DNA of 62,362 nucleotides from a virus (taxonomy: Duplodnaviria > Caudoviricetes): the IMG/VR virus record IMGVR_UViG_3300037493_001856, positions 1 to 62,362 of that record. One strand, given 5' to 3'. Positions 491 to 43,688 of this stretch are shown here, piece after piece; position 1 is the first letter of the stretch; each line of letters starts with the position of its first letter. Position numbers and translations under genes: made by a program. The notes beneath the pieces are model-generated. The model was not told where the DNA came from. It did no database searches and saw nothing but the letters and a program-made list of their open reading frames with translations.

Positions 491-1012
491 ATGAACGACA
501 CACTGAAATCATTCCTGTCTGGAATTGCACCAACGATAGCCAGTGCTTTGCTCGGCCCTCTTGGTGGCGTTGCGGTTGCAGGGCTTACCAAAGTCCTCGG
601 TATCGACGGTGGGACGGTTGCAGACGTAACCAAGGCCATCTCTGACGGGCGTGTAACCCCTGAACAGGTGGCAGAGATTCGCAAGCTGGAACTTCAGTAC
701 CAGGCCGATGAAAAGGAACGTGGGTTCCGCTACTCTGAACTAGAGTTCAAGGATAGGGATTCTGCTCGGCAGATGCAGATGACTACAAATAGTAGTACCC
801 CTACAGTTCTGACCTATATGGTAACAGTTGGGTTCTTCGCTATCCTCGGCCTGATGCTCTACGACGAGACAGTTGTTAATTCGCCACCGCTACTCATCAT
901 GCTTGGGTCACTCGGAACCGCTTGGACAGGTTGTATATCGTACTGGTTCGGTACGACAAGCAATAGCATGAACAAGACCACCCTGCTGGCTAACTCGGTG
1001 CCGTCAAAATGA
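491..1012 (+). CDS. Holin, 3TM (GTA-holin-like)
   Basis: APTIASALLGPLGG N-terminus, DRDSARQMQ, two C-terminal TM segments ending YWFG. Confidence 0.75.
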   Translation: MNDTLKSFLSGIAPTIASALLGPLGGVAVAGLTKVLGIDGGTVADVTKAISDGRVTPEQVAEIRKLELQYQADEKERGFRYSELEFKDRDSARQMQMTTNSSTPTVLTYMVTVGFFAILGLMLYDETVVNSPPLLIMLGSLGTAWTGCISYWFGTTSNSMNKTTLLANSVPSK

Positions 1013-11087: not shown

Positions 11088-11348
11088 GTGGCGAGACTTG
11101 TTTCGGAAATTCCCCGCCCTGCTGCGCCCCCTCCCCAGAGGGAGGCGGTGTTCGACGCCAACGCGTTTGCTGTGGCAATGGCCTCGGCTATTCGCGACAT
11201 AAAGATACCTTCGCCGCAGGTCACAGTGCAGGCCGCTACCGCGCCTCAAGTAAAAGTCATGCCCTCGGAGGCTCCGCAGCAGTGGACGTTTGTTGTGAAG
11301 AGAGACAAAAACGGCTACATCGCTGAGATAACCGCGAAGGCCGGATAG
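11088..11348 (+). CDS. Hypothetical protein
   Basis: GTG start; W.F.V.RD.NG.I C-terminal motif. Confidence 0.55.
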   Translation: MARLVSEIPRPAAPPPQREAVFDANAFAVAMASAIRDIKIPSPQVTVQAATAPQVKVMPSEAPQQWTFVVKRDKNGYIAEITAKAG

Positions 11349-28792: not shown

Positions 28793-29089
28793 TCATGGCT
28801 TCACCTCTCCTGCTGTAGGCACCCGAGCGGCTAGGCGTTCGATCATGTCGGCGGCACGATCCATAAGCACATCACAGTCACCGGCATTTGGCTCGCCCCG
28901 CAACCTCTCCACCATCTCCCGCACTTCCTCGGACGATGGGGCCGCACGCGCAGAAGTGGCCGTCTCCTCTAGTGCCTCGCGGAGTTGGTCGGCGGAATAA
29001 GACGCTTCCCATCCCCCGCCTTCGTTCGGTGCGGTAAGTTGGTTCGGCATCGTTGGGTACTTTGGATTCCACCAGTGAGTGGGCCTCAT
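28793..29089 (-). CDS. Mosaic hypothetical protein
   Basis: Shares blocks with 29621..30181. Confidence 0.55.
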   Translation of the reverse strand: MRPTHWWNPKYPTMPNQLTAPNEGGGWEASYSADQLREALEETATSARAAPSSEEVREMVERLRGEPNAGDCDVLMDRAADMIERLAARVPTAGEVKP

Positions 29090-29436
29090 GTCTGCTCCTT
29101 CCACTGTTTGATTGCGGCGAGTGCTACGCATAGTTCATGGTCATCATCCAGTTGCCGCTTCTTGATGTGATGGGCAATTACCTCCTCCATCTTCTCCAAC
29201 AACGCGCAGAGTTCGAGGATGGTGGCGGGATCACAGGCAGCGATAAACCTAGCGTTCTTTGGATAGAAGATAACGTCACGAATCAGATCGCTGTACTTAT
29301 ACCAGCGTGGGTTCTCGTTATGGTCTGTTACGCTTGCAGCCTTCGCTGCTTCGACCAGTGCGGTTAGCTTGTTCACCACTTTCGGCTTCCTGACAGAAGC
29401 ACCGCCGAGGCCATCCATTCCTAGTTTGTCGAGCAT
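29086..29436 (-). CDS. Mosaic hypothetical protein (Ead/Ea22-like motif)
   Basis: NARFIAACDPATILEL motif; shares blocks with 30178..31107. Confidence 0.55.
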   Translation of the reverse strand: MLDKLGMDGLGGASVRKPKVVNKLTALVEAAKAASVTDHNENPRWYKYSDLIRDVIFYPKNARFIAACDPATILELCALLEKMEEVIAHHIKKRQLDDDHELCVALAAIKQWKEQT

Positions 29437-29624
29437 GGCAACACCACCTTTAGCCCCAGACCGTTTGCTATCAGGCTGATCGCCATCTCATTCAGCATCT
29501 CTTGGTTGCCAAACAGAATCTTTCCATGCTCCGTATGTATGGCGAAGGCAAGTGTTCTTTCACCATTGGCGTACAGGTAGTCGATGAACTTACCGCAGTC
29601 GGTTTTGAGTTCTTCGTTGGTCAT
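29421..29624 (-). CDS. Hypothetical protein
   Basis: ATGA-coupled; RBS GAGGTG. Confidence 0.55.
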   Translation of the reverse strand: MTNEELKTDCGKFIDYLYANGERTLAFAIHTEHGKILFGNQEMLNEMAISLIANGLGLKVVLPCSTN

Positions 29625-30181
29625 GGCTTCACCTCTCCTGCTGCGATCAGCGCATTCCACTGGTCTTGATACGTCCGGTAGTTTCCCGGTGTAGCGATGA
29701 CACAACGGGCATCCTCTGTGACTTTCCGCCGCACAACCACGCACCCGTCAGGAACCCGAGCGGCTAGGCGTTCGATCAGGTCGGCGGCTTGTTCTTGAAG
29801 CCGGAACAAATCTACCTCATCATTCCTCAACCTCTCCGCCATCTCCCGCACTTCCTCGGACGATGGGGCCGCACACAACGCATCACCCTTGTACCGTCCG
29901 GGCATGATTGTTTCTTGCTGTGGTGCGGGTTCAGTGAGTGGTGGTGCGGTGAAGAACGGTTCCCATCCTCCACCATCATAGGGCTTGGTAAGTTGAACTG
30001 ACAATGATGGGTAACTAGGGTTCCACCAACCGCGTGGCTCCTGCCCCTCCACATAGGCGGCGATCAGGCGGGTGGCGAAGTAGGTAAGCCTCGCTTCTGT
30101 GAAACAAACCTCAGAAGGTTCTACCGTCCACACGCCTACGTCTATAGCAACTTTCAGCGCGAGTTCCTTGATGTCGGTCAT
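29621..30181 (-). CDS. Mosaic hypothetical protein
   Basis: Shares blocks with 28793..29089. Confidence 0.55.
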   Translation of the reverse strand: MTDIKELALKVAIDVGVWTVEPSEVCFTEARLTYFATRLIAAYVEGQEPRGWWNPSYPSLSVQLTKPYDGGGWEPFFTAPPLTEPAPQQETIMPGRYKGDALCAAPSSEEVREMAERLRNDEVDLFRLQEQAADLIERLAARVPDGCVVVRRKVTEDARCVIATPGNYRTYQDQWNALIAAGEVKP

Positions 30182-31107
30182 GTCTTGCTCCTTTCGATTT
30201 CGTCAATCAAGCGGCGAAGCTCTAGTTCAACCGCAGTACTTGTGTGTTCCGATCCACGCCCTGTAAAACGAGCAGCCGCCTCACGCAGTACCTCCACCTT
30301 CGCTTGCCGGAGTTGGTCGGCGATTGCAGCTAAATCCGATTGACGCACCGACAGAAGATTCTCGTGTTGCTGTCGCCACTCGTTACGATCGTTGGTCATA
30401 GCTTCAAGTTTCTTGGCGTAGGCCATCATTCCTTTGCCCGCGCCTTCAATCTCTCCGCAGTGCCTACATGCCGGCCTCATGTCTGATCCTTTCCACTGTT
30501 TGATTGCGGCGAGGGTTTCGGTAACTGCAATATCCAGAGAGCTACTCGGCCACATGTTCATTACCTTTTGAGTGTCTGCAAGAACGTCCTCTGCCTTCTC
30601 CAACAGGGCGCAGAGTTCGAGGATGGTGTCGCCGTAACCGTTAAGCGCATCAGCATACCGTTCCCGCTCCTGCGCCAGCCGATCCATCAGCGCGGAGTCG
30701 TCGGTTGGGTGGGCGAGTGCCTTCTTCGCTACACACCCACCGCAGTCGGTGTATCCATCCCCTCCTCGGCCACACCAACCTTCGCAGTATTGATCTTCGT
30801 AGTATTGCAGCGCCTCCCGCAGCTTCGCCTCCTGTGCTTGAGCGGCTTGCAATTCGCGCAGGTAGTGATCACGCTCGTCGAGCGCCTTGTGCGTGAGTTC
30901 GTCGGCTTGTGCGGCGGCGAGTTGTTCGCGCAGTTCAATAATTACACCGGAAGCATGTAACAAGTTCGCTTCATCCTCAGCAACCTGAGCGCGTAGGGCT
31001 TCGATGTCGTCAGGCTCATGGCCTGCTTGCCAGTTGTGGTTCATTTCATGTATCTCCCGTTGTGTCAGCGCATCCAACGTCATCGTCATTTCAGCGAGTT
31101 GGCCCAT
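30178..31107 (-). CDS. Mosaic coiled-coil hypothetical protein (probable two-gene fusion)
   Basis: Contains a gene-junction module with a 1-nt insertion near 30491. Confidence 0.55.
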   Translation of the reverse strand: MGQLAEMTMTLDALTQREIHEMNHNWQAGHEPDDIEALRAQVAEDEANLLHASGVIIELREQLAAAQADELTHKALDERDHYLRELQAAQAQEAKLREALQYYEDQYCEGWCGRGGDGYTDCGGCVAKKALAHPTDDSALMDRLAQERERYADALNGYGDTILELCALLEKAEDVLADTQKVMNMWPSSSLDIAVTETLAAIKQWKGSDMRPACRHCGEIEGAGKGMMAYAKKLEAMTNDRNEWRQQHENLLSVRQSDLAAIADQLRQAKVEVLREAAARFTGRGSEHTSTAVELELRRLIDEIERSKT

Positions 31108-31292
31108 CGCAGCTCATCAGACCGTGACCACGCTCTGGGAAGAAGAGCTTGCGTCACGGCGGCGAGTTGTTCTCGGTAGTGATCAGCCTCGTTGATCCAT
31201 CCATCCCGCTCCTGTGTCAGCCCAGCAACCTTCTCACGCAGGGCTTCGATTTCTGTTTGCAGTTCTTGCGGTGATTTGTTTAGGTCACTCAT
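31086..31292 (-). CDS. Hypothetical protein
   Basis: RBS AAGGAG; IEALR and REQLAA shared with the downstream ORF. Confidence 0.5.
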   Translation of the reverse strand: MSDLNKSPQELQTEIEALREKVAGLTQERDGWINEADHYREQLAAVTQALLPRAWSRSDELRWANSLK

Positions 31293-31327
31293 CGGGTTCT
31301 CCTTGTAAGGCTTCCTTCGTTCTCCGT

Positions 31328-31455
31328 GTCTAACTTGCCAGTTCATTTCACTCTCCTTTGATTGTCCGGTATTCGACAGGATGTTTGGCTTCAACGGGTT
31401 ACCGCCGCGTGATGGAATGTTTTGCGTCTTTTAGGGGGTCTACTTAGCGTTATGC
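31328..31455 (+). mobile_element. Degenerate att-like site 1 (array boundary; long attC-like or attI-like)
   Basis: GTCTAAC at 31328 and GGTCTAC-ttagc-GTTATGC ending 31455; no good internal stem. Confidence 0.5.
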
Positions 31456-31707
31456 CCCTTCGGGTACGGCAACCGTGTTGTGCGGGCACCGATCAAGGCA
31501 AACCAACCGCCGAAGCTCAACCACATCACCCTCCTTTTCGCCGTAGCGTTTCCATGCCGTTGTCGATAGCGGCCCGAACAGCACGGCTCCGATCATCTCC
31601 CCCGCTTCGTAGAGCGCAAACGCCATGCTCACCTTGCAGCCGTTGATGCTCTTGCTGTAGTGGTGTTCCTCAATGAATGGCCGCACTACCGCAACCGCCA
31701 CGGGCAT
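31450..31707 (-). pseudogene. Cassette 1: N-terminal fragment of a Mom-like (GNAT) DNA-modification protein
   Basis: FIEEHHYS...IGAVLFG...VELRRLVC.D.CPHNT then early stop in the att core; no clear RBS. Confidence 0.55.
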
Positions 31708-31779
31708 AACACGGCGGTCAACACGGACGCCTGCCGGCGATAAAGCCGCCGTCATGCGCCGGTTACCTCAGCGTTAGCC
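31704..31779 (+). mobile_element. attC site 2
   Basis: GCATAAC..GGT[C]AAC[A]CGG[A]CGC / GCGCCGGTTACC..GTTAGCC. Confidence 0.9.
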
Positions 31780-31780
31780 G

Positions 31781-32002
31781 TCACCATGACATCGTGTCGC
31801 GCAGGGTGGAAATCTTCACGTTGTAAAGGCCTGTAGCCTTCATTTCTTCCATCGCGTTTTCCAACATCGCCAGCCGTTCCTTCTGCTCGGCAATCTTGCG
31901 CTCCAAGTTCTCGCCGCACGTCATCTGCTGCATCGGGTCTTTGTCTTTGCAGTAGCCAAGGGTATTCCCTGCCGGCATCATCACTTGGTTTCCTTCGTAC
32001 AT
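31781..32002 (-). CDS. Cassette 2: coiled-coil hypothetical protein
   Basis: RBS AAGGA; fills the cassette. Confidence 0.65.
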   Translation of the reverse strand: MYEGNQVMMPAGNTLGYCKDKDPMQQMTCGENLERKIAEQKERLAMLENAMEEMKATGLYNVKISTLRDTMSW

Positions 32003-32044
32003 GGTCATTCCTTTATTCAGTTGCCGTGGTTTACGTGGGCGCAC

Positions 32045-32111
32045 GGCTAACCCGTCGTTCCAGCGGAGCTACGCAATAAGGCCGCTTGCGCCGGTTATTT
32101 CTGCGTTAGCC
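32045..32111 (+). mobile_element. attC site 3 (hybrid, mismatched arms)
   Basis: GGCTAAC..TTCCAGCGGAGCTACGC / GCGCCGGTTATT..GTTAGCC. Confidence 0.75.
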
Positions 32112-32112
32112 G

Positions 32113-32370
32113 TCACAGTTGCGTGTATCCGCTCTCGAAAGCGCCTGCCGGTGAAAACGACTTGTAGCCGTCCTCATAGACCACGTAGTAGCCGCCGACT
32201 TCGGGCTTGTGTTTTGCCACGTATTCCGGCGACAGCGGCACTTTGTCGTAGCCTTCTTCGGCGGGCTGGAAATACACACCACCGTGCTGGTCGCCAACAA
32301 TCCCGGCAATCTTCAAAGCCCACACTTTCTTGTGGCATTCGTACTTCGGCATTTCGCGGCTTGCGTTCAT
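32113..32370 (-). CDS. Cassette 3: phage protein with YYVVYEDGYKSFSP..FE.GY motif
   Basis: RBS GAGGA; motif resembles the domain often fused N-terminally to DUF2829. Confidence 0.65.
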   Translation of the reverse strand: MNASREMPKYECHKKVWALKIAGIVGDQHGGVYFQPAEEGYDKVPLSPEYVAKHKPEVGGYYVVYEDGYKSFSPAGAFESGYTQL

Positions 32371-32409
32371 GTTTCTGTCCTCAAAAACCGTGGCTTCATC
32401 GGGCGTCAC

Positions 32410-32467
32410 GGCTAACCCGTCAATCAACCCGGACGGCTTTCAGCCGCCGGTTAGCTCTACGTTAGGC
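32410..32467 (+). mobile_element. attC site 4
   Basis: GGCTAAC..T[C]AAC[C]CGG[A]CGGC / GCCGCCGGTTAG..GTTAGGC. Confidence 0.9.
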
Positions 32468-32991
32468 CCCATGCCGAGTAGTGCTGTTAACTTTATCGGA
32501 GCGCAATTCGCCCCGTTCGCTTGCACTCCGTTCAACCTTGGGCGCAGGCAGTGGATATAAAGCGACTCCAACCTGTCCAGAGCATCAACAGAGCACGGAA
32601 CGAACGCATAGCGGTCAAACCGCTTTCCTGTGTGCTGTCCAATCCGAGAGTAGACATTCACGGCCTGCCCGACGTAAACAACCTCGTCCCCGTCGAGCAA
32701 GAAATACACCCCACTTGCCTTCGCCCACGGCAAGGCCGCTTTCGCTATTTCGTCCTCTCTCAGAAGCGCCGATCCAACCACAGCAGCAGAAACGGAGTGC
32801 ATTGTTTCCATGCGTTGCAGCGCGTCTAGCCTTTCTTCCAGTTCGGCTATCTGGCGGTGCAGTCCGCCAGCGTATTTGAGCGCATCTTGTCTTGCCGCAT
32901 CTTCAGCATCACGTCTTGCTCGGCGCGTAGCGTGGGCCTTTGCAGCAATCGCCTTGCGTTCTTCTGGCGTCTTGTTTTGCATCGGGTTCAT
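32440..32991 (-). CDS. Cassette 4: GIY-YIG-domain protein
   Basis: SGVYFL...VVYVGQA...SRI..H...LE..YI...P.LN; RBS GGAGG; C-terminus reads into attC 4 (PNVELTGG). Confidence 0.75.
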   Translation of the reverse strand: MNPMQNKTPEERKAIAAKAHATRRARRDAEDAARQDALKYAGGLHRQIAELEERLDALQRMETMHSVSAAVVGSALLREDEIAKAALPWAKASGVYFLLDGDEVVYVGQAVNVYSRIGQHTGKRFDRYAFVPCSVDALDRLESLYIHCLRPRLNGVQANGANCAPIKLTALLGMGPNVELTGG

Positions 32992-33003
32992 TTTTCCTCC
33001 AGT

Positions 33004-33060
33004 GCCTAACCCGGCAGTCCAGCGGACGCCGTGCCGGCGCCGCTGACTTTTGCGTTAGGC
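33004..33060 (+). mobile_element. attC site 5
   Basis: GCCTAAC..AGTC[C]AGCGG[A]CGCCG / CGGCGCCGCTGACT..GTTAGGC. Confidence 0.92.
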
Positions 33061-33327
33061 ACACCACCCGCAACAACCGAATGACAGCCCTGCCTCAAGC
33101 TGTCCGGCAATGATCGAGTATTCAGCCTCGTTGATTCCGTATTTCTCCAGCACTTCTGGTTTCGGCGGAACGCGAGTAAATTGCATGTCACCGCAAGCGT
33201 AGTACTCTGCGTTTTCGGCGTCCCTGTCGTATTTCTCTCCAAAGTCTTCGCTGTCGGCGTCAATGTCGTTAATCGTGAAAGTCGGCGTGTAACACAGTGC
33301 CGATCCAAATTCGAGTTCGAGTTTCAT
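33055..33327 (-). CDS. Cassette 5: acidic Cys-containing hypothetical protein
   Basis: RBS AGGAG; ends GCCGWCA with its stop inside the att core. Confidence 0.7.
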   Translation of the reverse strand: MKLELEFGSALCYTPTFTINDIDADSEDFGEKYDRDAENAEYYACGDMQFTRVPPKPEVLEKYGINEAEYSIIAGQLEAGLSFGCCGWCA

Positions 33328-33341
33328 GCTCTCTCCTGTGT

Positions 33342-33404
33342 GCCTAACATTTGCGTCAACGCGGACGCTTCGCAAGCTACGCGCCGGTTACGCCAGCGTT
33401 AGGA
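33342..33404 (+). mobile_element. attC site 6
   Basis: GCCTAAC..GCGT[C]AAC[G]CGG[A]CGC / GCGCCGGTTACGC..GTTAGGA. Confidence 0.9.
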
Positions 33405-33605
33405 ACCGCGCCGCACATCGGCCAGCGCCTTCGATAAATCCATGCTTGCCCGTTTCGCTGCCGCGCAGTGCTGCCCGCCGCAATAGTAGGGGTCTCCCTT
33501 GGCGTATTCAGTGCTTCCAGCGCACCGCTTCACAACGTCTGCCACTGCCAAAAACCTCTTGGCTTCGGCAACGGCTTTGTCCAGCGTCTTTACTCTAATG
33601 CTCAT
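33399..33605 (-). CDS. Cassette 6: small helical hypothetical protein
   Basis: AVAEAKRFL...AAAKRASMDLS.ALA..R; stop inside the att core. Confidence 0.7.
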   Translation of the reverse strand: MSIRVKTLDKAVAEAKRFLAVADVVKRCAGSTEYAKGDPYYCGGQHCAAAKRASMDLSKALADVRRGS

Positions 33606-33611
33606 GTCGTT

Positions 33612-33667
33612 TCCTAACCCTTCATTCAACCCGGACGCCTTCGGCGCCGGTTAATTCCACGTTAGAC
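33612..33667 (+). mobile_element. attC site 7
   Basis: TCCTAAC..ATT[C]AAC[C]CGG[A]CGCC-ttc-GGCGCCGGTTAAT..GTTAGAC. Confidence 0.92.
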
Positions 33668-33835
33668 ATCTATGAACACGACCCACTTCGGTTCTGACGC
33701 GGGCTTACGGTAGTGCGTTGCCTGCACATCTTCGGCATCATTCCAGTCGCCAGCCTCGTTGCGCACTTCAACCCTCGCATCCCCGTAGTCGGCGCGCATC
33801 TTCTCCAGCTTGGCGATCAATTCGTTTATGGTCAT
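33662..33835 (-). CDS. Hypothetical protein flanking the array
   Basis: MTINELIAKLE...YGD; stop TAA lies in the GTTAGAC core. Confidence 0.6.
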   Translation of the reverse strand: MTINELIAKLEKMRADYGDARVEVRNEAGDWNDAEDVQATHYRKPASEPKWVVFIDV

Positions 33836-33837
33836 CT

Positions 33838-33996
33838 TCAAATCTCCACAGGGTAGTCTGCCAGCCACGCCAGCCGCGCCCACTCATCACGATGCCGAGC
33901 GAGATAGGCTACATGGTCAGGGTTACGTCCGGTGTTCCGTGCGAAATCGCAGTCCCACCTTGTCAGCCAGTGCATGACACGGTAGAAGTGTTTCAT
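33838..33996 (-). CDS. Hypothetical protein
   Basis: Coupled small ORF with purine-rich RBS. Confidence 0.5.
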   Translation of the reverse strand: MKHFYRVMHWLTRWDCDFARNTGRNPDHVAYLARHRDEWARLAWLADYPVEI

Positions 33997-34235
33997 TTCC
34001 TTCCCTCCTTCACGGCGAGATACTTCCAATACGCTCGGCCCTGCGTTCCCATGATGTAGGTGCACTCGTCAGCGGTGCTGTACACAGGCGTCATGCCCAT
34101 CACCTTGGCGCAGACCTTGGGTGCTTGTGTGGAGCGTTCTTCCCCTATCCATAGCCCTGAGACGAAACAGGCAATAGACCAGCAGAGAAAAAACACGATG
34201 ACATCGGGGTAGAAGGCTTTACGGTTTGGGTTCAT
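33993..34235 (-). CDS. Small membrane protein
   Basis: One hydrophobic segment; ATGA coupling. Confidence 0.55.
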   Translation of the reverse strand: MNPNRKAFYPDVIVFFLCWSIACFVSGLWIGEERSTQAPKVCAKVMGMTPVYSTADECTYIMGTQGRAYWKYLAVKEGRK

Positions 34236-34441
34236 CCCCGCACCCACAACTCACGCCTAGCAGCGATAAACCCAGCGTTTTTAAGTTGCGCCGCTGTTAC
34301 GGTAGGCCGAGGGGTTTTCTTGGTGTGTCCCGGCAGGACGAACTCATCTTGATTATGGTACGACGGGACGATGGTTAAGTTGCCCTTTACATAAACGGTG
34401 CAAGGGGCTGTCGGGGCTTCGTTAAAGTCTGCTGCTTTCAT
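34232..34441 (-). CDS. Hypothetical protein
   Basis: ATGA coupling. Confidence 0.55.
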   Translation of the reverse strand: MKAADFNEAPTAPCTVYVKGNLTIVPSYHNQDEFVLPGHTKKTPRPTVTAAQLKNAGFIAARRELWVRG

Positions 34442-34614
34442 TTCGTTTTCCTTTCGATTGGTTTGTCATTAACCTTCTTTGCCATTGCAAGCCTGTGGTG
34501 CTCGGGGCAGAGAACCCCTCCGCCGTTGCTGTACTGCCCGATGCGGTGGCATCGCTTACCTGATTGCGTCTTGGCAGTGCATTGCATCCGGTCTTGTTCG
34601 TAGGAGTGATTCAT
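34438..34614 (-). CDS. Small Cys/His zinc-finger-like protein
   Basis: CTAKT.SGKRC...C.EH. Confidence 0.55.
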   Translation of the reverse strand: MNHSYEQDRMQCTAKTQSGKRCHRIGQYSNGGGVLCPEHHRLAMAKKVNDKPIERKTK

Positions 34615-34808
34615 ACACACCCCTTCCGCAAGAGACTCTCCCTCATGTACTGGAGCTTGGCCTGCATGTTGTGCAGTTCATCTTCAGCATATTGTCTCTC
34701 AACCCTTGCCCCCGCCTCACGGCGACGTTGCCTTGCGACGAACAGCTTGTATGAATCCACGGCTTGCGAGTACGCGATGATCTCTGCTTGCTCTTGTGGG
34801 ATGGTCAT
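34611..34808 (-). CDS. Hypothetical protein
   Basis: Coupled ORF. Confidence 0.5.
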   Translation of the reverse strand: MTIPQEQAEIIAYSQAVDSYKLFVARQRRREAGARVERQYAEDELHNMQAKLQYMRESLLRKGCV

Positions 34809-35008
34809 TTCCTGCTCTCCCATTCCCTGTCGTACTCGCGCTCACGCGCCAGATCGTTCTCGTAGTCAGCCTTGGCACACTGGTTCTCGTACCAATCCTC
34901 ACCATCGGACTCAACACCCGTACCCCGGCAAGATGAGCATCGAGAACCATCGTACATACCCTCGCCTGAACCGTTGCAGGTGGGGCAGAGTGGTTCGTCG
35001 TCGGTCAT
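34805..35008 (-). CDS. DnaJ-type zinc-finger small protein
   Basis: CPTCNGSG...CSSCRGTG. Confidence 0.7.
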   Translation of the reverse strand: MTDDEPLCPTCNGSGEGMYDGSRCSSCRGTGVESDGEDWYENQCAKADYENDLAREREYDREWESRK

Positions 35009-35137
35009 TTCAGTACCTCCATCGCATCAGCATACGCCTTGCATTTCATCGGGTCTTTCTGGAACTGCCGGGATAACTCGGCATATGCGACGAGTAGTGC
35101 TTTAAGTATGTTGCGCATTGTGTATCTCCTTGGGTGA

Positions 35138-35166
35138 ATAGTACGCATGTCTCACCCTGATGTCAA
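35138..35166 (-). promoter_or_regulatory. Sigma70-like promoter TTGACA-17-TACTAT driving the small-ORF/cassette operon
   Basis: Near-consensus; followed by RBS AAGGAG and ATG at 35118. Confidence 0.7.
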
Positions 35167-35204
35167 GCAAGACATGCGTGGAACTCGTTGTGAGATTCTC
35201 ACAG

Positions 35205-36056
35205 TCAGCCGCAAAGACCTTGCATCTGACGCAAAATCTCGTTGGTCTTGTCGATCACCGACGTGCGCAGGGCATCGTCCTTCTTGATGTCCTTCATCTC
35301 CAACCCGTTGGTCAGCTTGCGAATCTCCGACCGCATGGTGTCAATGCCAGCGTCATTGGTGATGTTCAGGCCGGGGAGCCTGTCGAGCAGGTCGACGATG
35401 TTGTCCAGTGCGGAGTCAACCAGCTTGCCGTCAGACTGCAGCCGGTCGCGCAGGTGGGAGACAGTACCCACAAGCTCCGTCCAAACAGACTCGACCATGC
35501 CCTGCACGCGAGAGTTGAGTGATGCTTCGATCTCCTGCCGCACCTCGTCGACGACATCGTCACCCATCTCCACACGGAAATCTCCGGCGACAGGCAGAGG
35601 CATGACGGTGAAGTCCATGTAGAACTTCTCGCGAATCTCCCACGACTGCGGGTAGTCGGCCTCGTTGAACAGCGAGTTCAGCCGCAGCTTGGCGCGGTCG
35701 CGGTGCATGTCGTAGTCACGGCAGAACACATCGACAGCATTCTTGAATTCAACCTTAAGTTCCCGCAAGCGATCCATCACGGTGAAGTAGTTGAGCGACG
35801 AGAGCACGCGGTCGCCGTTGTCCGACCACGGCAGGGTGTGCTGGTAGAAGAACCTGCGCGCAGCCCCGACGATCTGCACCATCGGCAGCAGGGAGTTTTT
35901 GTCAATGATCTGCTTGTTAAACCGTCCGGCATCAGACGCGGCGGCATGGTTCACCGTTACCTCCTGCGTGGCGGACTTGTCCAGCTTGCGTGCAGTCCAC
36001 TGGCCGATCTTGAGCGAGACCAGCATGGCTCGCGATGCGATGTTTTCAGTTGTCAT
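35205..36056 (-). CDS. DUF3150-like phage protein
   Basis: AMLVSL.I..WTARKLDK, TLPW.D.G.R, LFN..DYP, LNITND; co-occurs with MoxR/VWA. Confidence 0.6.
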   Translation of the reverse strand: MTTENIASRAMLVSLKIGQWTARKLDKSATQEVTVNHAAASDAGRFNKQIIDKNSLLPMVQIVGAARRFFYQHTLPWSDNGDRVLSSLNYFTVMDRLRELKVEFKNAVDVFCRDYDMHRDRAKLRLNSLFNEADYPQSWEIREKFYMDFTVMPLPVAGDFRVEMGDDVVDEVRQEIEASLNSRVQGMVESVWTELVGTVSHLRDRLQSDGKLVDSALDNIVDLLDRLPGLNITNDAGIDTMRSEIRKLTNGLEMKDIKKDDALRTSVIDKTNEILRQMQGLCG

Positions 36057-36258
36057 TTTGATTCCCCTGATTGAGGGCTATCAGCAGTCCGAACTTGGCT
36101 GCTTCAAGCGATTGAAATGGTCCTACGCGTTCATCGCCTACAGGCTCGACCCACCACGGCGGCGGGCTTCGCGCATCTATGTACATAAATGGCGTCGGCA
36201 GATTGCCGTTGACGATCACCGTGATCAACCCGTCGTTCTCCGAAAACACATAACTCAT
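36046..36258 (-). CDS. Hypothetical protein
   Basis: ATGA-coupled 70-aa ORF. Confidence 0.5.
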   Translation of the reverse strand: MSYVFSENDGLITVIVNGNLPTPFMYIDARSPPPWWVEPVGDERVGPFQSLEAAKFGLLIALNQGNQNDN

Positions 36259-37046
36259 GGGTGGTACTCCAAGTAAGGGGATTCGTACTGGTCGGCGCAG
36301 GCGAACGAGATCAGTTCCTTGAGGTCGTCGCGCACGCAGTTGTTTGCAATCGTCCGGCATACCTGCGCAGTTCTCTCCAGATCGTCGGTCGCCGCAGCAG
36401 ACAGGCGCTGCTGTGAGATTCTCACAACCGACTCGATATCCACAACATCGGGAGACAACGCCAGCTCGCGCAGCAACGTCGTGATCGACAGGTGTGATCC
36501 GATGGAGGACATCATCGATATGCGTACCTTGGCCTCGTTGACGAGACGCTTCCACCGAGGCATGAACTCTTTGACCCGCTTGCGGTTGATGACGCTGTAG
36601 CGAATCCGCTCCTCCTTCTCTTTTGCAGGCGGGCTGTCCGGCGAGGCATAGGTTACCCTCCCTGCTACGAGCGCAACACCGTGCTCACGATCACACCACA
36701 ACACCGGGTTATCGACGATACGGGACACCGGCACCTTCTGCTTGGTGTGCGGGCAGAACAGCTTACCTACAAACTCCTTGGCAAGGTCGAAATCAACGCC
36801 GAGCAGGCAGCGAATGTCATGCCTCCAGTCAGTGTCACGACCACCGTAACCACTCACGAACAGCGTGCCGTGAGGAGCGACGATTACTTCGCCGGCAGGT
36901 CCGACACTTGTCGCAAACGAGACTAGCGTACCGTTGTTGCGGACTGTCGCCGTTTTGTCGGTGTGTATCTGGAAATAGCCAGCTACATTCGTATCAGGCA
37001 GCTGTCGCCATGCGCTGTCCATGTACTGCGGGTGCTTGAGTTTCAT
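36255..37046 (-). CDS. Hypothetical protein
   Basis: RBS GGAGG; ATGA coupling. Confidence 0.6.
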   Translation of the reverse strand: MKLKHPQYMDSAWRQLPDTNVAGYFQIHTDKTATVRNNGTLVSFATSVGPAGEVIVAPHGTLFVSGYGGRDTDWRHDIRCLLGVDFDLAKEFVGKLFCPHTKQKVPVSRIVDNPVLWCDREHGVALVAGRVTYASPDSPPAKEKEERIRYSVINRKRVKEFMPRWKRLVNEAKVRISMMSSIGSHLSITTLLRELALSPDVVDIESVVRISQQRLSAAATDDLERTAQVCRTIANNCVRDDLKELISFACADQYESPYLEYHP

Positions 37047-37633
37047 ACCAAGTCCTCCATCATCTTGGTCATGGCGTTCTGCATGAAGCTGTGGTCGCAG
37101 AGCGTGTAAATATCCCGTCCACTGAGCTTGTCCTTCGGCATCTTGCCGCGCAGGTACTCCTTGCACTTGGCCGAGAGCACAGGCTCAGGCTTCCACACCT
37201 GCATCTCCAGACGCATACGGTCAGGCGGGGTCATGTCGGCCAGCGTCACATCTTGCTGGCGTAGCCACACATCGGACTGGAACTTCGCGACGTTGGCCGG
37301 CACGATGTACGTCCGGCTTGAGTCAAGCTCCACCTTGTTGTCTTGTATCGGGCCGTCATTTACCCAGATATGCCCTTTGTAGGTGTGTGTGTACATCCGG
37401 GTGAGGGTGTTGATGATCTTGACCGACGACGGGGTGTGCCATCCGTTGATCGTCACCGTCAGGCTGTTGTCGGGGCGCAGCGTGCCGACTCGCGTGCTGT
37501 ATGCCTTGAGGAGAATATCCTCGCCGGACATCGTCGCCCATATCTCGGGACGTTTGTTCACCTTGAGCTCGTTCTTGCGCCCTCGGTTCTTGGTCGTGAT
37601 GGTCTCACGCAGACTTGTGTACCTTAGTAGCAT
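37043..37633 (-). CDS. Hypothetical protein
   Basis: RBS AAGGAG. Confidence 0.6.
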   Translation of the reverse strand: MLLRYTSLRETITTKNRGRKNELKVNKRPEIWATMSGEDILLKAYSTRVGTLRPDNSLTVTINGWHTPSSVKIINTLTRMYTHTYKGHIWVNDGPIQDNKVELDSSRTYIVPANVAKFQSDVWLRQQDVTLADMTPPDRMRLEMQVWKPEPVLSAKCKEYLRGKMPKDKLSGRDIYTLCDHSFMQNAMTKMMEDLV

Positions 37634-37694
37634 GGTTCTACTCCTTGATTGAGCGCAGCTGATCCGCAGCTGCCACGGTGTTACTGTGAGAAAC

Positions 37695-38351
37695 TCACAG
37701 CTTGATGTTGTCGCCGAACGGACACTCGTCGGCGGTTGTTACGGTGATGTGCGGAGCCACCCGCTCCTCGAACACCCCTTTCTTGACCCACTTGTTTATC
37801 GTTGATGGGCAAACCCCTGCGAGCCGCGCCCATCCTGTAAGGTGATGTGTTGTACCTTGCACTGTCAGCCAGCGGTTCTGCCGCGGGTTTGCCCCTTGCT
37901 CGAGCGGTGTAGCCCACCGACAGTTGTCGGGTGAGTACGGGCCGTTGTTGTCCCGCCGGTCAAGCGACTTCCCTTCCGGCTTGAGCCCCATGTCACCCAA
38001 GAAGTTGGAGAACGTCCGCCACCTGTCACACACGGTAATCCCGCGACCTCCATACTTTGGGTATGCCTTGTCGTTCGGGTTCGTACAGCGTTGAGTCATC
38101 GCCTTCCAGATGCGATGCTCCGGCGTATTGCAAGCCCCGTGGACAATCTGGTGGTATGGCTCAAACCCTACGTACTGCCCACACCCACAGGACTTGGTGT
38201 TCCCAGACCGGAGCCGCCCTGTGGTGACGACAGTGACCTGCCCACAATCACAGGCGCACTCCCACGCAACGTTCCGCCCTTCGTGCACCCCTTGGCGGGT
38301 CACAACCAGCCGCCCAAACCGCCGACCGATCAAACACTTTTTCGCAGGCAT
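37695..38351 (-). CDS. HNH homing endonuclease
   Basis: GRRFGRL.V, C.CDCG, KSCGC, W..M..RC, YGGRGI.VC.RW, SLDR.DNNG.YSP.NCRWAT. Confidence 0.85.
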   Translation of the reverse strand: MPAKKCLIGRRFGRLVVTRQGVHEGRNVAWECACDCGQVTVVTTGRLRSGNTKSCGCGQYVGFEPYHQIVHGACNTPEHRIWKAMTQRCTNPNDKAYPKYGGRGITVCDRWRTFSNFLGDMGLKPEGKSLDRRDNNGPYSPDNCRWATPLEQGANPRQNRWLTVQGTTHHLTGWARLAGVCPSTINKWVKKGVFEERVAPHITVTTADECPFGDNIKL

Positions 38352-39463
38352 TAGTCCATCCTTATAACGTCCCCCCACGGAGGTATGACATCGGTCGTGA
38401 GGCACCATATCACCGGAAACTCAGGCGGCTCGGGGTCGTAGGGGGTTTCGCCGTCCGAGAGCCATATCATAACAACAGGTAGTGTATCACACTCACCGGC
38501 GAGCTTTGTAGCTGGCCTCAAGTCCGTACCACCACCCCCATGTACGTCAGCCTTGAGCTTCTCGCCATCTGCGTAATGGTCGACCGCCGTCACGCGCGCA
38601 TCGCACTGGATCACGGTCACGCACTCGGGCTTGCACTCGTCGCATATCGACTGGACCTCGTCGAGAAACTCTCCGACGCGGGCGACGATACTTCCGCTTG
38701 TGTCGATACCCACCACCACGCGCCCCATGCCGGGGTTGTGCAGAGCCGGCAGGTACATGCCCTGTGCCAAGAACCTGCGCTGCCCACGGTTCCACGACTG
38801 GTCGTTCTTCAAGACCTGAGTCATGTACCGGCGCAACTCCTCCCGCCAGTCGACCTTGGGTGCGAGTGCCTGCTCGACCAGACCTGCGAGAGACGCGGGG
38901 AGTGCCCCTTGAGCTTTGGCTTGGTTCGCGGCTTGCGTTATGCGTACCTTCGCCTCCGCCTCGGACTGCTGCCTCTCCTGCTCGTTACCGGGGGCGTCCA
39001 TGCAGTCATCGAACTGGTCGCCGTCACCTTGACCTGAACCTTGGCCGTCGTCGGGCGGCGGGTCGGGGAGCTTGTTATAGATTTCCTCGAACGCCTGCCC
39101 CTTGTACTGCGTACCATCGAGCCCCTCGGGCGGGAGCGAGAACCCTGCCTCGGCGATGATCGGATTGATCGCCAAGTCCATCGCTTGATTCGCCTTCTTG
39201 TGATTGCGCGAGCCCTTCCGCCACGGGTGCAGCATGGCAACGTGCATGACCTCGTGCACAAGAACTCCGCAGACTTCCTCAACAGACCATCGCGTGATCG
39301 CGTCGGGGTGGACGAACACAGACTTGCCGTTGGTAGCGGCAGTCGGCGGCTTGAGGCTAGCGTCTATCTTCAGGTCCATGCCCAGCAGGACAGATGCGAA
39401 GAACGGTGACCTCATGACCACGCGGGTCCGGGCCTTGGCCAGCTTGTCGTTAACGATGCTCAT
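38351..39463 (-). CDS. DUF2201 metallopeptidase + VWA-like protein
   Basis: TAATNG, HEVMH, DTSGS (MIDAS), GGGGTD, SDG. Confidence 0.85.
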   Translation of the reverse strand: MSIVNDKLAKARTRVVMRSPFFASVLLGMDLKIDASLKPPTAATNGKSVFVHPDAITRWSVEEVCGVLVHEVMHVAMLHPWRKGSRNHKKANQAMDLAINPIIAEAGFSLPPEGLDGTQYKGQAFEEIYNKLPDPPPDDGQGSGQGDGDQFDDCMDAPGNEQERQQSEAEAKVRITQAANQAKAQGALPASLAGLVEQALAPKVDWREELRRYMTQVLKNDQSWNRGQRRFLAQGMYLPALHNPGMGRVVVGIDTSGSIVARVGEFLDEVQSICDECKPECVTVIQCDARVTAVDHYADGEKLKADVHGGGGTDLRPATKLAGECDTLPVVMIWLSDGETPYDPEPPEFPVIWCLTTDVIPPWGDVIRMD

Positions 39464-39594
39464 TCTTTTCTCCTTAAGTTCACCTGCAGTTCATCGGCCA
39501 GCTTCATCAGCCGGGTCTCGGTTCTCGCCGCGCGGGACTGGATATCCTTGAGCCTTGTGAGAATCTCACAGAGGATTTCGTAGATGATGTTCAT
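39460..39594 (-). CDS. Small hypothetical protein
   Basis: RBS AGGAG; contains one palindrome copy (CEILT). Confidence 0.5.
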   Translation of the reverse strand: MNIIYEILCEILTRLKDIQSRAARTETRLMKLADELQVNLRRKE

Positions 39595-39652
39595 AAGATG
39601 CTCCTGTGATCGAGCCGGAGGCGAGTCCCATCGGTGTCGTAGAGGATGTTCA

Positions 39653-39985
39653 TCAATCCTCCTTCGCTTCGAGAAACGCGGCGTACGTTTCGGGACAGTA
39701 TCCGTCGCCGATGATCCCCCGCTTAGTTTTGACCCATGCCTTGTACTCGTCACGGCCCTTGCCGTCAGTCGGCACGTCGTCGATGAACGGCTTGTCGAGC
39801 GGGCTTACCTGCGCATCCATGCGTGTCGGGATATACGCGCCTTGGTCCTCCTCGACCTTGACCGCACCGGACTCGATCATCAGGGCCATGATCTCCGTGG
39901 CCGTCCTTACCGGCAGGACGTACTTGCCCCAGTACCCGAGGTGCAGGAGGACGAGGTTTTGTGAGATTCTCACAGGCTTGGCCAT
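39653..39985 (-). CDS. Hypothetical protein
   Basis: RBS GGAGG; contains one palindrome copy (VRISQ). Confidence 0.6.
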   Translation of the reverse strand: MAKPVRISQNLVLLHLGYWGKYVLPVRTATEIMALMIESGAVKVEEDQGAYIPTRMDAQVSPLDKPFIDDVPTDGKGRDEYKAWVKTKRGIIGDGYCPETYAAFLEAKED

Positions 39986-39987
39986 GA

Positions 39988-41004
39988 TCAGTCCTCCCAC
40001 ACATCAGCGTGGTCGACGGCGTAGCGGTTGAACGCCTTCGTGAGCTGGAGGGATTGCGTGCGACGTACCGCGTCCTTGACCAGCATCATGCCGTACTCGT
40101 TCGGCAGACGGTTCGCGTACTTCACTATGTTGTCGAAGTTACCCGTCTTGGCCCGCTGTGCGAGCGCCGCCGCCACCGCGTACTGCACGTCGACCTCGGT
40201 CGGTATCGGCGCGCTGTCAGGGTTCATTATGATCCCGTCGATATTCGGCATCCTCTCCCATGTGCGCATGAACGCCTCGACCTCCGCCGCCGGCCCCTCA
40301 CCCACGGTTCCGGCGATCATCGCGTACCGTACTGCTATCGGCACGTTCTGGCTCACGATCTCGCAGACGGTTTCCCATGAGCGCGGAGTGGCGAACGCCA
40401 CGTCCCCCTTGGCCGGGTCGAACGTGTTCAGCAGATCAGGTTTCAGGCGCAGGAACGCTATCGGCAGCGGGTTCAGGTCCTTGCCCCATGCCCACTTGCA
40501 CCACGGGTCCAGCTCGGCGATCAGCTCCACGTGCATGAGCCGGTTGGCCAACGGTGTCGCCATCTTGTTAGCACCACCACGGTCAGTCTGCCTGTTGCTC
40601 GCCATGATTACCCTGACGTTCGACATGAGCTTATGTTCACCAACGGCGCGGTCGAGGACCAGCTGGAACGCGACGGACTGAACCGCCGGCAGGGCCTGCA
40701 TCGCCTCATCGAGGAACAGGTAGATCGGGCGGCTCGGGTCGAACGCAGAGTTTCCCTCGAACGGCAGCACCGCCGGCGGGTTCCACACCGTGACCTCGTC
40801 GACGACGGACGGGATGCCCCTTACGTCGACCGAATCCCACATGGAGAGGCGGATATCCACCAGCTGGGCGTTATCCTCGGCAGCGATCTGCTGCATGATG
40901 CTTGACTTGCCGATACCGGGGCCTGACCAGACCATCAGGGGCTTGTTCATGTTGATGGCCGTCTTGATGGCCAGCATGGTGTTTGTTGCATTGAGTTGCA
41001 GCAT
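39988..41004 (-). CDS. MoxR-like AAA+ ATPase
   Basis: GPGIGKS, LFLDE, ASNR..D, PLANR, TPRSWE. Confidence 0.9.
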   Translation of the reverse strand: MLQLNATNTMLAIKTAINMNKPLMVWSGPGIGKSSIMQQIAAEDNAQLVDIRLSMWDSVDVRGIPSVVDEVTVWNPPAVLPFEGNSAFDPSRPIYLFLDEAMQALPAVQSVAFQLVLDRAVGEHKLMSNVRVIMASNRQTDRGGANKMATPLANRLMHVELIAELDPWCKWAWGKDLNPLPIAFLRLKPDLLNTFDPAKGDVAFATPRSWETVCEIVSQNVPIAVRYAMIAGTVGEGPAAEVEAFMRTWERMPNIDGIIMNPDSAPIPTEVDVQYAVAAALAQRAKTGNFDNIVKYANRLPNEYGMMLVKDAVRRTQSLQLTKAFNRYAVDHADVWED

Positions 41005-41074
41005 GGTGATTCTCCTAAGTAAGTGTCACGAACCCGTCGTGACTGCGGTTTGTTGCGAAGACGTTGTGAGATTC

Positions 41075-41221
41075 TCACGCCCCGAACGTGTTCTGGTTAC
41101 GCACGAGGCTGATCAGCCTGACGAAGTGCTTGGCCCAGTAACACTGTTTCACCGGGTCGGTGGTCGCCATTTCGCAGGCGAAAATCTTGCGCGCCAGATG
41201 GTTGAATTGCCGTTGCTTCAT
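41075..41221 (-). CDS. Small hypothetical protein (48 aa, not in track)
   Basis: RBS AAGGA; MKQRQFNHLARKIF... Confidence 0.45.
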   Translation of the reverse strand: MKQRQFNHLARKIFACEMATTDPVKQCYWAKHFVRLISLVRNQNTFGA

Positions 41222-41642
41222 GGTGATTCCTTTCGTTACATAAGTGCAAGCATTTGACGGTAGCCTGCGTCACCGCTTAAAGGCGCTGTGAGAACCTCAC
41301 AACGACCTTAAGCCCCAAGGGGCATCTCCCTGCCACCGTGTTTAGGCCACAGGCGTGGCCATGCACAGTCGAACCGTCGCCTCCCGGCGGGGAACAGGGT
41401 AGTATCGCTACTGCCAAGGCGACGAGTCGTCGTCGGTATGTTGTCCATCGTGGCAGCTTCTATCTCGCCTCGCCGGGGATCGCTCCTGCACCCCGTGGCC
41501 CGCCATGCACGTTTCACACATGGTAGATTGGTATGTGGCATGACTCCGGCCATCACCCTTGCTGCTCTTGCGCCCTTCGACTCGTTGTGAGTTTCTCACA
41601 GCCCTGCTTGAGGTGGTCGCGACTGCTCCACCCATTAATACT

Positions 41643-41672
41643 ATTATAGCATAGGTGGAGGGTCTGTGTCAA
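41643..41672 (-). promoter_or_regulatory. Consensus sigma70 promoter TTGACA-18-TATAAT with extended TG
   Basis: Perfect hexamers. Confidence 0.75.
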
Positions 41673-41686
41673 GTAGTTGAACGGAA

Positions 41687-42214
41687 TCAATAGCTTGGAC
41701 GTGTCCGGCGAGGCTTGCGGGGTGCAGGGTTTCCGGCCTTCTGGATCACCGTCACCTTCCACTCCTTGAAAAGCTTGTCGAACGCAAAGACCAAGGTCGT
41801 GATCGGCACAGCCTCCAACGGTTGAGGTGCCACGACTTCGAGCAGGCCACCGGGCATCCCGCTAATATAAAACTGGTTGGCGTAGGTCGGATCGTCGTCC
41901 GGATACTGCTGCATCATCGGCTTGGGTGTCCGATACCGGAACTTGCCCTTCAGGTCAGATCGCAGGCGCGACATACGAATACCTGCCATTCCATAGTTTA
42001 CATAGCTTGATATCCACTCTGCTTCTGGAACTACTTTAGCTAGTATTTCGCGAGGCTGTCCAAACAACGGGGTGGCGTGCTGGTTGGTCGTGAGTTCGTT
42101 CTCGGTGTAGGCCACGAGTTTGCTGACGGCGATGAGTTGCTTGGCCAGCCACTCCCGAGTTGAAGCCGAGGGCTTGACCGTGAATGTCGTTTCGAGGGCG
42201 TTGTAGTCGCGCAT
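41687..42214 (-). CDS. Hypothetical protein
   Basis: RBS AAGGA before ATG 42214. Confidence 0.55.
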   Translation of the reverse strand: MRDYNALETTFTVKPSASTREWLAKQLIAVSKLVAYTENELTTNQHATPLFGQPREILAKVVPEAEWISSYVNYGMAGIRMSRLRSDLKGKFRYRTPKPMMQQYPDDDPTYANQFYISGMPGGLLEVVAPQPLEAVPITTLVFAFDKLFKEWKVTVIQKAGNPAPRKPRRTRPSY

Positions 42215-42845
42215 GATTGGTTCCTTAGCGGTTGGTGGAGTTTGCATGATAGCACAAGCTCAGGGATACGCAAGGTATTTTTACGCTGTACCAGTAGTAC
42301 AAGGTAAAGGGGATTTTGGTACGAAAAACAAGGCGATATTCAAGCTGTACCGTAAGTACCGTAAGTACCAGCACATGTAGAACTGGGTTTGACGTTTTTA
42401 AGAGAGAGGTTGTAAGCGAATATACCTATGAAGAAACCTAAGATAGGGTCGCCAAGGGGTCGCGTGACGAACACACTGCTTTTAACCTTCTTGTAATTAT
42501 TGTATATATGGTACTTACTGAATATACTAAGGAGGCCAAAGCCGGTTTCCCCCATATGGCCACTAAAGCCGGTCACCGTTCTTGAGCGTGGTATAAAGTA
42601 GTTGTTTTAGTACCTTGTAAAGATACTTCTTGCACACCTTGAATATACCTTTGTGAGAATCTCACACCCCCGTGGCGTTGCCGTGCCGGGTACTGTCCCT
42701 CCGATGTGCGGCCAACATCGTCTATAAATCTTCAGTAGTACTACTGACGTTTCCACCACCGTGATGCTAACGTGCAGCTGCCGTGCAGGGTACTGTCCCG
42801 CTACCGGCAGGACCGGTTGTGAGAATCTCACAGAAAAGCTGGACG

Positions 42846-42869
42846 AAAAAAAGCCCGCCGGAGCGGGCT
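42846..42869 (-). terminator. Rho-independent terminator
   Basis: AGCCCGC-tccg-GCGGGCT followed by a T run on the minus strand. Confidence 0.8.
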
Positions 42870-42887
42870 GTTAGGGTTTGCCGGATT

Positions 42888-43385
42888 TTACTTTTTGCCG
42901 ACCGTGGCCGTCGTGAGCTTGGAGCTGATCATCGCAAGGCATTCCGCGAATTTCGCGCGATCCCCAGCTGGCAGGAAGGTGTTAGCCAGTTCGGCCACGC
43001 GCGATATCGCTGCAGCATTCGTCACTTCGGTTTTTGGCTTCGCATCGCTGGGCTTCGCATCGCTGGGCTTCGCATCGCTGGGCTTTGCAACCTTGACCGA
43101 AACCACGCCCGCCTTGTCCAGCGAATATCCGGCCTTGCCGCGAACCGCGTCTGTCATAAGCCGGCGGACTTTCGATTGTATGTCCTTCGTTGCGCCGGTG
43201 TAGGCGGGGTCCGCAAGCAGCACTTTATATGCGACTTCGTAAGCGATCATGTTGGTCATGGTAGAGCATTCGACGAAGCCCACATAAGCCCGCAGCGCAT
43301 CGCCCGCCTTAAGGCCGGAGGAAATGGCCGCCCCAGCGGCCTTAATGACAACGGCAGCAGTAACTTGTTTGGTGGTTGCATTCAT
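42888..43385 (-). CDS. First early gene; Ala/Lys-rich protein with KPSDA x3
   Basis: RBS AAGGA; own extended -10 (TGtTATAAT at 43435..43443) and terminator; 15-bp tandem at 43036..43080. Confidence 0.65.
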   Translation of the reverse strand: MNATTKQVTAAVVIKAAGAAISSGLKAGDALRAYVGFVECSTMTNMIAYEVAYKVLLADPAYTGATKDIQSKVRRLMTDAVRGKAGYSLDKAGVVSVKVAKPSDAKPSDAKPSDAKPKTEVTNAAAISRVAELANTFLPAGDRAKFAECLAMISSKLTTATVGKK

Positions 43386-43688
43386 GATGTCTTTTCCTTT
43401 AAGTAAGTTCTGCATAACGTTATGCAGTGACTACATTATAACACGCTTTCCCCCATATGCGGAGGATTCGAGCTTTGTGAGAATCTCACAGCAAGGCTTG
43501 AGAGAATCTGGCGAGCGACCCATGCCGGGGGGCCGGGGGGCAAATCGTTTTCGTGGTGTGGGAGGGGGCGCGCCACTCCCACGATCACTAAAAAACGAGA
43601 GGGGGGAGTGGGGGCTATCAAAAATCACTTGATTTTAAGGTGTTCTTCGCGTAAAGTCCTACCTACACGCACACCCCGGAGAGTCGCC

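Follow-up and report, generated by a model that had tools for sequence, protein, structure and literature searches.

Integrons are regarded as bacterial devices that consist of an integrase, its attI site and an expressed cassette array, and sedentary chromosomal integrons also hold reverse-oriented cassettes, for example toxin-antitoxin cassettes with their own promoters. Already known from Qi et al. 2023 (PMC9892861), supplementary tables aside, are clusters of attC sites without an integrase (CALINs) in virulent phages and a single CALIN with its own attI, of the Shewanella type, in an inactive prophage; five of the six phage attC sites tested in that report were recombined by IntI1. No report of a phage attI family or of reversed phage cassettes was found in the literature searched (supplements aside). 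The locus analysed here resembles the CALINs of that report in being an attC array without intI in a (probably) virulent phage. It differs from them, as far as the report describes them outside its supplementary tables, in that its attI is found in a phage whose complete genome has no recombinase and is one of a motif family that occurs at the head of many viral arrays, and in that the genes of this and other viral arrays are systematically reversed relative to attC, a reversal that we did not find mentioned there.

The window, by which we mean the whole 62,362-bp stretch of DNA, is a phage record with direct terminal repeats that was rated 100% complete and that encodes its own DNA polymerase, primase-helicase, helicase, portal and structural proteins. 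A search of the complete record for TIGR02249, PF00589 and PF00239 returned no match to a tyrosine or serine recombinase. Since TIGR02249 and PF00589 had no match anywhere in the record, the divergent intI that adjoins an attI was missing, and from the parts of a complete integron (intI, attI, Pc promoter and cassettes) intI was absent, which makes the element an attI-bearing CALIN. The lifestyle of the phage is probably virulent, and our guess for its host is Betaproteobacteria, as bacterial matches were mostly to MAGs of that group.

Cultured phages gave no megablast match to positions 29000-36000, and the DNA polymerase was less than 30% identical to that of any cultured phage. No relatives were found via a 283-aa protein, and a search with a 309-aa protein retrieved a single viral locus, L002, and nothing among metagenome contigs; L002 has backbone genes in common with the window at 39-73% identity. 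The sequence of the polymerase relative L003 (94%) stops before the array, and the polymerase relatives L004-L007 (50-56% identity) were without attC sites and had no small array-flanking genes in common with the window, so that they were not usable as empty-site comparators. The DNA polymerase match of two distant relatives was interrupted by a stretch of about 0.8-0.9 kb (L006, 7475-8263; L007, 11366-12298), which encodes a homolog of the window ORF 37695-38408 and looks like a mobile insertion in the polymerase gene.

A covariance model derived from the six window attC sites and the L002 site matched exactly those six sites in the window, all on the + strand and at 50-75 bits. Their consensus fold comprises an R''/R' stem and an L''/L' stem with three bulged bases, all on the 5' arm of the + strand, which gives the six array sites the hairpin stems and extrahelical bases of attC. 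Polarity was calibrated on 14 integrons in which intI or its remains were present (13 bacterial ones and a degraded one in the provirus locus L128), and in 14/14 the model's + strand lay upstream of intI and divergent from it. The + strand of the window is therefore the canonical attC top strand, and a canonical attI is expected at the left end of the array, which is where the initial annotation had flagged a candidate resident acceptor, in the place of an attI.

Each of the six cassettes begins with TTxxxx, matched by xxxxAA in its own R'', just as annotated beforehand. In a canonical cassette the gene lies on the attC top strand and is followed by its attC; here 6/6 genes lie on the opposite strand (in what follows cassettes are given in + coordinates, all ORFs are on the - strand and all attC sites on the + strand). 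Cassette 1 (31450-31773; ORF 31450-31755; attC A, 31704-31779) carries the remnant of a Mom-like DNA-modification gene, matching Pfam PF25680 over positions 4-85 of 202 and phrog_1384. Compared with the full 200-aa cassette of locus L085, which sits between the two attC sites of that locus, it has a 338-bp internal deletion between 8-bp direct repeats of CCGTGTTG, and the window's copy is frameshifted; such a deletion remnant indicates decay in at least part of the array. Cassette 2 (31774-32105; ORF 31781-32044; attC B, 32045-32111) has homologs in L103 and L116, and cassette 3 (32106-32461; ORF 32113-32427, phrog_11049; attC C, 32410-32467) also occurs, at about 90% identity, in L032, in L125 and in L012, there in first position at an attI. 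Cassette 4 (32462-33054; attC D, 33004-33060) has a maximal ORF (32440-32991) with a weak GIY-YIG match that runs about 22 nt beyond the crossover into attC C, cassette 5 (33055-33398; ORF 33055-33375; attC E, 33342-33404) encodes an acidic protein, and cassette 6 (33399-33661; ORF 33399-33629; attC F, 33612-33667) ends at the last crossover, G33661|T33662. Summed contig depths for the ORF3 cassette region (32154-32495) reached the thousands, with many variant contigs, in the wastewater run X5, where this cassette family seems very abundant.

The left site ends in GGTCTAC, five nucleotides and GTTATGC, as the initial annotation had read it, and takes the form of an attI simple site at 31437-31455 (+) with an L box GGTCTAC (31437-31443), a spacer TTAGC and an R box GTTATGC (31449-31455), its crossover falling between G31449 and T31450. 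As in attI, the L and R boxes (GGTCTAC-TTAGC-GTTATGC) form an imperfect inverted repeat around the crossover, and the site stands at the array head with a G|TT crossover; the R box GTTATGC is not strictly RRRY and with the ancestral right half would read GTTAGAC. That the site is without a normal stem was confirmed by folding, in which the 129-nt site behaved like its shuffles (z +0.52 and +0.74 for the two strands), the real attC sites F and C having z values of -2.87 and -2.31 for comparison. The attC model found no match to it on either strand, even at E 10, and the attC hairpin is not a feature of this site.

Its kinship in sequence is to attI sites that lie beside intI. Bacterial attI junctions located 114-320 nt from intI share the end motif of the window, as GGTCTAC-N5-G|TT in L276 and as GTCTAC-N5-G|TT in L268 and L265, with a TTAGG element upstream. 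The L276 junction reads ccgtcgtttaggtGGTCTACttcca|GTTAGGC and that of the window gcgtcttttaggggGTCTACttagc|GTTATGC, and next to the junction the window is identical to L276 at 19/25 positions, and likewise to L265. With a profile of five bacterial attI sites, nhmmer returned a single match in the whole window, at 31400-31452 (+; envelope 31380-31455) with an E value of 2e-4, a modest match of 17.5 bits from a profile of only five sequences. The window site is thus like the attI of betaproteobacterial chromosomal integrons in its array-head position, R-box G|TT crossover and lack of a hairpin, and also in its GGTCTAC-type L box five bases upstream, the TTAGG upstream and about 50 alignable nucleotides. 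Unlike them, it is without intI or any recombinase, lies in a phage early-gene block, has transcription running toward it and reaches its left limit at an inverse copy of the core. Judged from sequence, the right part of the flagged site, at about 31380-31455, appears to be a double-stranded attI and not a long attC, and this resident attI is assigned to one family with the intI-adjacent attI sites of chromosomal integrons in Betaproteobacteria. The initial annotation had left the acceptor as either attI-like or long attC-like; the former part stands, on homology, motif and recombinant contigs, and the latter falls with the missing hairpin and the missing attC-model match.

At least 120 viral stretches contained the attC-type pattern; of the 80 loci examined among them, 78 had attC sites by the model (214 matches), with strands never mixed within a locus. 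The motif G[TC]CTA[CT]N5GTT occurred 23 times in these 78 viral loci (718,814 b, both strands), with 18 occurrences on the array strand no more than 1200 nt upstream of the first attC, 0 inside arrays and 5 elsewhere. The pattern TTAGGNGGTCTACTTNNNGTT was present in 10 viral loci, four of which (5 sites, two of them in L279) have it heading attC arrays; in the remaining six the pattern falls in AT-rich coding sequence, apparently by chance, so that no empty attI could be claimed from this search. The exact 19-mer of the window attI was absent from the viral and metagenome collections. L279, a 37-kb viral contig, carries near-identical attI sites at 708-728 (+) and 11287-11307 (-), each followed by attC sites, and its two arrays converge. 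In L048, at about 105-180 in array orientation, three direct GTTAGGCCTCAC repeats precede a GTCTAT-N5-GTT junction; these could be accessory repeats for integrase binding or remnants of stacked cores.

Alignment across related phages, a check proposed together with the initial annotation, showed that the acceptor is kept in L002, where the same place reads GTCTAC-TTTAA-G|TTCGGC and is followed by a different first cassette; the L002 attI is of a different subtype from that of the window and its attI region is shorter. The left-flank backbone gene, which encodes a coiled-coil protein (31086-31293, -), has a start common to L002, ATGAGTGAC at 31293, and 31294-31449 is therefore probably intergenic. 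A minus-strand ATG with a ribosome-binding site had been reported within the left site and is indeed present (31346-31344, with GGAGAG upstream), but the start shared with L002 is the one at 31293. The ATG at 31346 was also considered as a vestigial intI start and rejected, as the N-termini of bacterial IntI proteins were unrelated.

The crossover could be followed in other phage arrays and in metagenomes, the latter as assembled contigs of four public runs. The 5' end of cassette 1 equals the start of the L085 cassette at 33/34 nt, joined to an attC in L085 and to the attI in the window. Cassette 3 has a different left neighbour in each of four arrays (in L012 an attI) and likewise four different R' right halves, and its homology stops at G|TT on both sides; this comparison defines the mobile unit as a reversed gene plus an attC upstream of its start codon. 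In X1, the source-like run, the attI segment 31329-31451 had a depth of 103 vs 26.5 for the array (3-4x), and in three runs it continued after 31451 into three other sequences or first cassettes, the continuation in the lake-water run X3 starting with TTCGGCGTCA, as in L002. In variant contigs the right flank from 33660 was joined to other last attC sites, and one X3 contig joined the ORF3 cassette straight to the right flank. Homology that breaks exactly at G|TT in other phage arrays, together with contigs that recombine attI and right flank, argues that the crossover is real; part of the array variation could come from homologous recombination between similar attC sites. A junction of 31449 to 33662, the empty site suggested for checking, was not among the contigs of these runs, which drop rare variants, and no empty-site relative was found.

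The right flank is constant under different last cassettes, with variant arrays joining at 33660. Its backbone gene (33662-33883, -) ends in two codons and a stop, GAT GTC TAA, which are TTAGACATC and at the same time the right half of the last core, and a homolog of this gene in L077 has the identical end with no att site beside it. TTAGACATC is therefore the gene's own end, and removing the six cassettes would rebuild ...GGTCTAC-TTAGC-G|TTAGACATC, that is, the attI left half followed by the stop region of the right-flank gene, in agreement with the initial reconstruction of a left-site half joined to G|TTAGACA. The more abundant variant in X1 was without 24 nt at 33836-33859, just upstream of the right-flank gene.

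Gene orientation was scored by the longest ORF per strand in each inter-attC interval under a 1.3-fold rule, after removal of duplicates and without the window. Among 123 viral intervals 61 were opposite to attC, 15 the same and 47 ambiguous, vs 11 opposite, 65 same and 27 ambiguous among 103 bacterial intervals of the same attC type (Fisher p 1e-16 on intervals; the test is crude, and loci are not independent). Counted per locus, 32 viral loci were opposite, 6 same and 14 tied, and the bacterial loci divided as 2, 19 and 7 (p 2e-8); in the window all five scored intervals were opposite. The window cassettes are like the reverse cassettes of sedentary integrons in having the gene opposite to the attC top strand, a condition that is in the minority in the bacterial set (11/76 scored intervals) and that, on these ORF counts, appears to be the rule in viral arrays (61/76). 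Within the 39 viral records with multi-site arrays no IntI match exceeded the curated cut-off, 34 records had no match and one was a provirus with IntI fragments; 18 of 20 bacterial genomes with these arrays matched IntI, 15 of them above the cut-off. Two contigs of bacterial MAGs, L194 and L196, contain virus-like runs of opposite cassettes, perhaps derived from phages or part of prophage arrays.

A perfect sigma-70 consensus promoter (41672-41643, -; TTGACA, 18 nt, TATAAT, with TG), which heads the minus-strand early block, and a 10/12 promoter-like site (35166-35138, -), both of them consensus matches only, read toward the array and then the attI. No promoter-like site was found on the + strand in 30500-43500. 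These consensus matches agree with the earlier proposal that the acceptor lies at the promoter-distal end of the array.

An alternative reading takes the left site as a 128-bp attC-like or hybrid resident site with TGTCTAAC (31327) as its R'' and G|TTAGACA as its R', so that the two far cores are the arms of one site, which would in effect have the entire phage circle as its cassette. The inverse match from which it starts is exact, as first annotated: TGTCTAAC at 31327-31334 (+) is the reverse complement of 33661-33668, the last core plus one base, and a rebuilt left site would have inverse-complementary outer heptamers, as R''/R' are in attC. The accompanying caution that an 8-bp match might be chance was justified, as the whole-window count is not significant by itself (2 observed vs 1.08 expected, and at least 2 in 30/100 shuffles). 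The 7-mer GTTAGAC occurs only three times in the window vs 4.55 expected, with two of the three flanking the attI segment, and the probability of a single copy so oriented in the 122 nt left of the junction is about 0.005, a post hoc estimate. This reading also gains from the left-flank gene start, which is 35 nt from the motif as cassette genes adjoin their own R'', and from variant contigs in X1 (depth 75) and X2 that part from the window at 31328|31329, inside TGTCTAAC. Against this, pairing of TGTCTAAC with GTTAGACA as an attC arm did not hold: unlike attC, the left site has no L''/L' stem, no extrahelical bases, no model match and a fold energy not lower than that of shuffled sequence, and an inverse of the last detected R' was found within 200 nt upstream in 0/18 other attI-headed viral arrays. 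The shorter attI region of L002 has no counterpart of the motif, and TTAGACATC is native to the end of the right-flank gene, in L077 as well, so we consider an attC-like or hybrid site unlikely. Two further candidate roles were set aside, TGTCTAAC as a distal direct repeat of the L box (the ungapped repeat test was weak) and an L-box-like motif on the same strand at -90 to -135 (in just 3/31 attI sites). Under the preferred attI reading, the contigs delimit a module at 31329-31449 (+; shared to about 31451), between the left-flank gene start (31293) and the crossover, that is about 97% identical to variant contigs in which both sides differ. The divergence at 31328|31329 suggests that a mobile attI module may have its left end at TGTCTAAC, and, taken with the different attI subtypes on the related backbones of the window and L002, the module looks exchangeable; a left limit inside TGTCTAAC is not predicted by a plain attI model.

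The locus might instead be an inert relic, with an attI and some cassettes captured once from a bacterial integron by illegitimate recombination and unused since, the differences among arrays being due to homologous recombination and deletion. The missing integrase and the repeat-mediated deletion inside cassette 1 fit this account, as does the sharing of one attC type by many loci, which could support homologous exchange. Simple capture, however, should give the canonical orientation found in bacteria and not genes reversed to attC, the breakpoints fall exactly at G|TT with a different R' right half each time, 18 other viral arrays retain the attI motif at their head, and environmental contigs connect the same attI to at least three other first cassettes; the relic account is quite unlikely. 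A very improbable third account would have the cassettes entering a chance GTT in phage sequence, with the likeness to a simple site accidental. IntI is able to use non-att sites, according to a preprint (bioRxiv 10.1101/2022.09.11.507474), and GYCTAYN5GTT alone is not rare in the window (2 observed vs 1.09 expected), but the bacterial attI profile aligns over about 50 nt, beyond the core, the motif is strongly enriched at array heads, and a longer CG..TTTTAGGNGGTCTACTT is common to the window and five further viral array heads.

We therefore favour, as the probable explanation, a resident double-stranded attI (the right 70-120 bp) in an integrase-less phage, exchange by a host IntI and a reversed array, taken jointly. 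Its starting points are the observed site homology and motif, crossover positions, cassette sharing, integrase absence and reversed genes; a host IntI as the enzyme, ongoing exchange and a reason for the reversal are what we infer from them. The phage would replicate in a host whose IntI recognises the attI, circular cassettes would be inserted at G31449|T31450, and the G|TT of each attC would serve for cassette excision or exchange, each mobile unit running from TTxxxx through an opposite-strand gene to its own attC. The phage array would then be a swappable set of small accessory genes common to other phages. Phage transcription is predicted to read in the bottom-strand sense of attC and to run toward the attI, so that new cassettes would land promoter-distal. 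The reversed layout may separate phage and host cassette pools in expression, and, should replication and transcription share a direction, may make the recombining bottom strand the exposed one.

A broader proposal, to which we give somewhat less than even credence, is that virulent phages of integron-bearing Betaproteobacteria keep 'reverse integrons' that have no integrase, with a host-type attI at the promoter-distal end and cassette genes antisense to their attC, borrow the host IntI and trade genes among unrelated phages. The genes traded during infection would be accessory and probably counter-defence genes. Because of the reversed orientation, phage cassettes would be silent in a host integron and host cassettes silent in the phage, and the attI module (31329-31449) may move between backbones.

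Whereas an integron as understood in bacteria includes its integrase, this phage retains a docking site and cassettes only and appears reliant on a host enzyme, and many uncultured viral genomes show this layout as well. Reversed genes would separate a phage cassette pool from the bacterial one despite the same recombination sites, and this would amount to a new rule in the shuffling of small accessory genes by phages. The layout also offers a handle for accessory-gene discovery, as anything between attC sites in a viral contig becomes a candidate, and the attI/attC type may serve as a route to host prediction.
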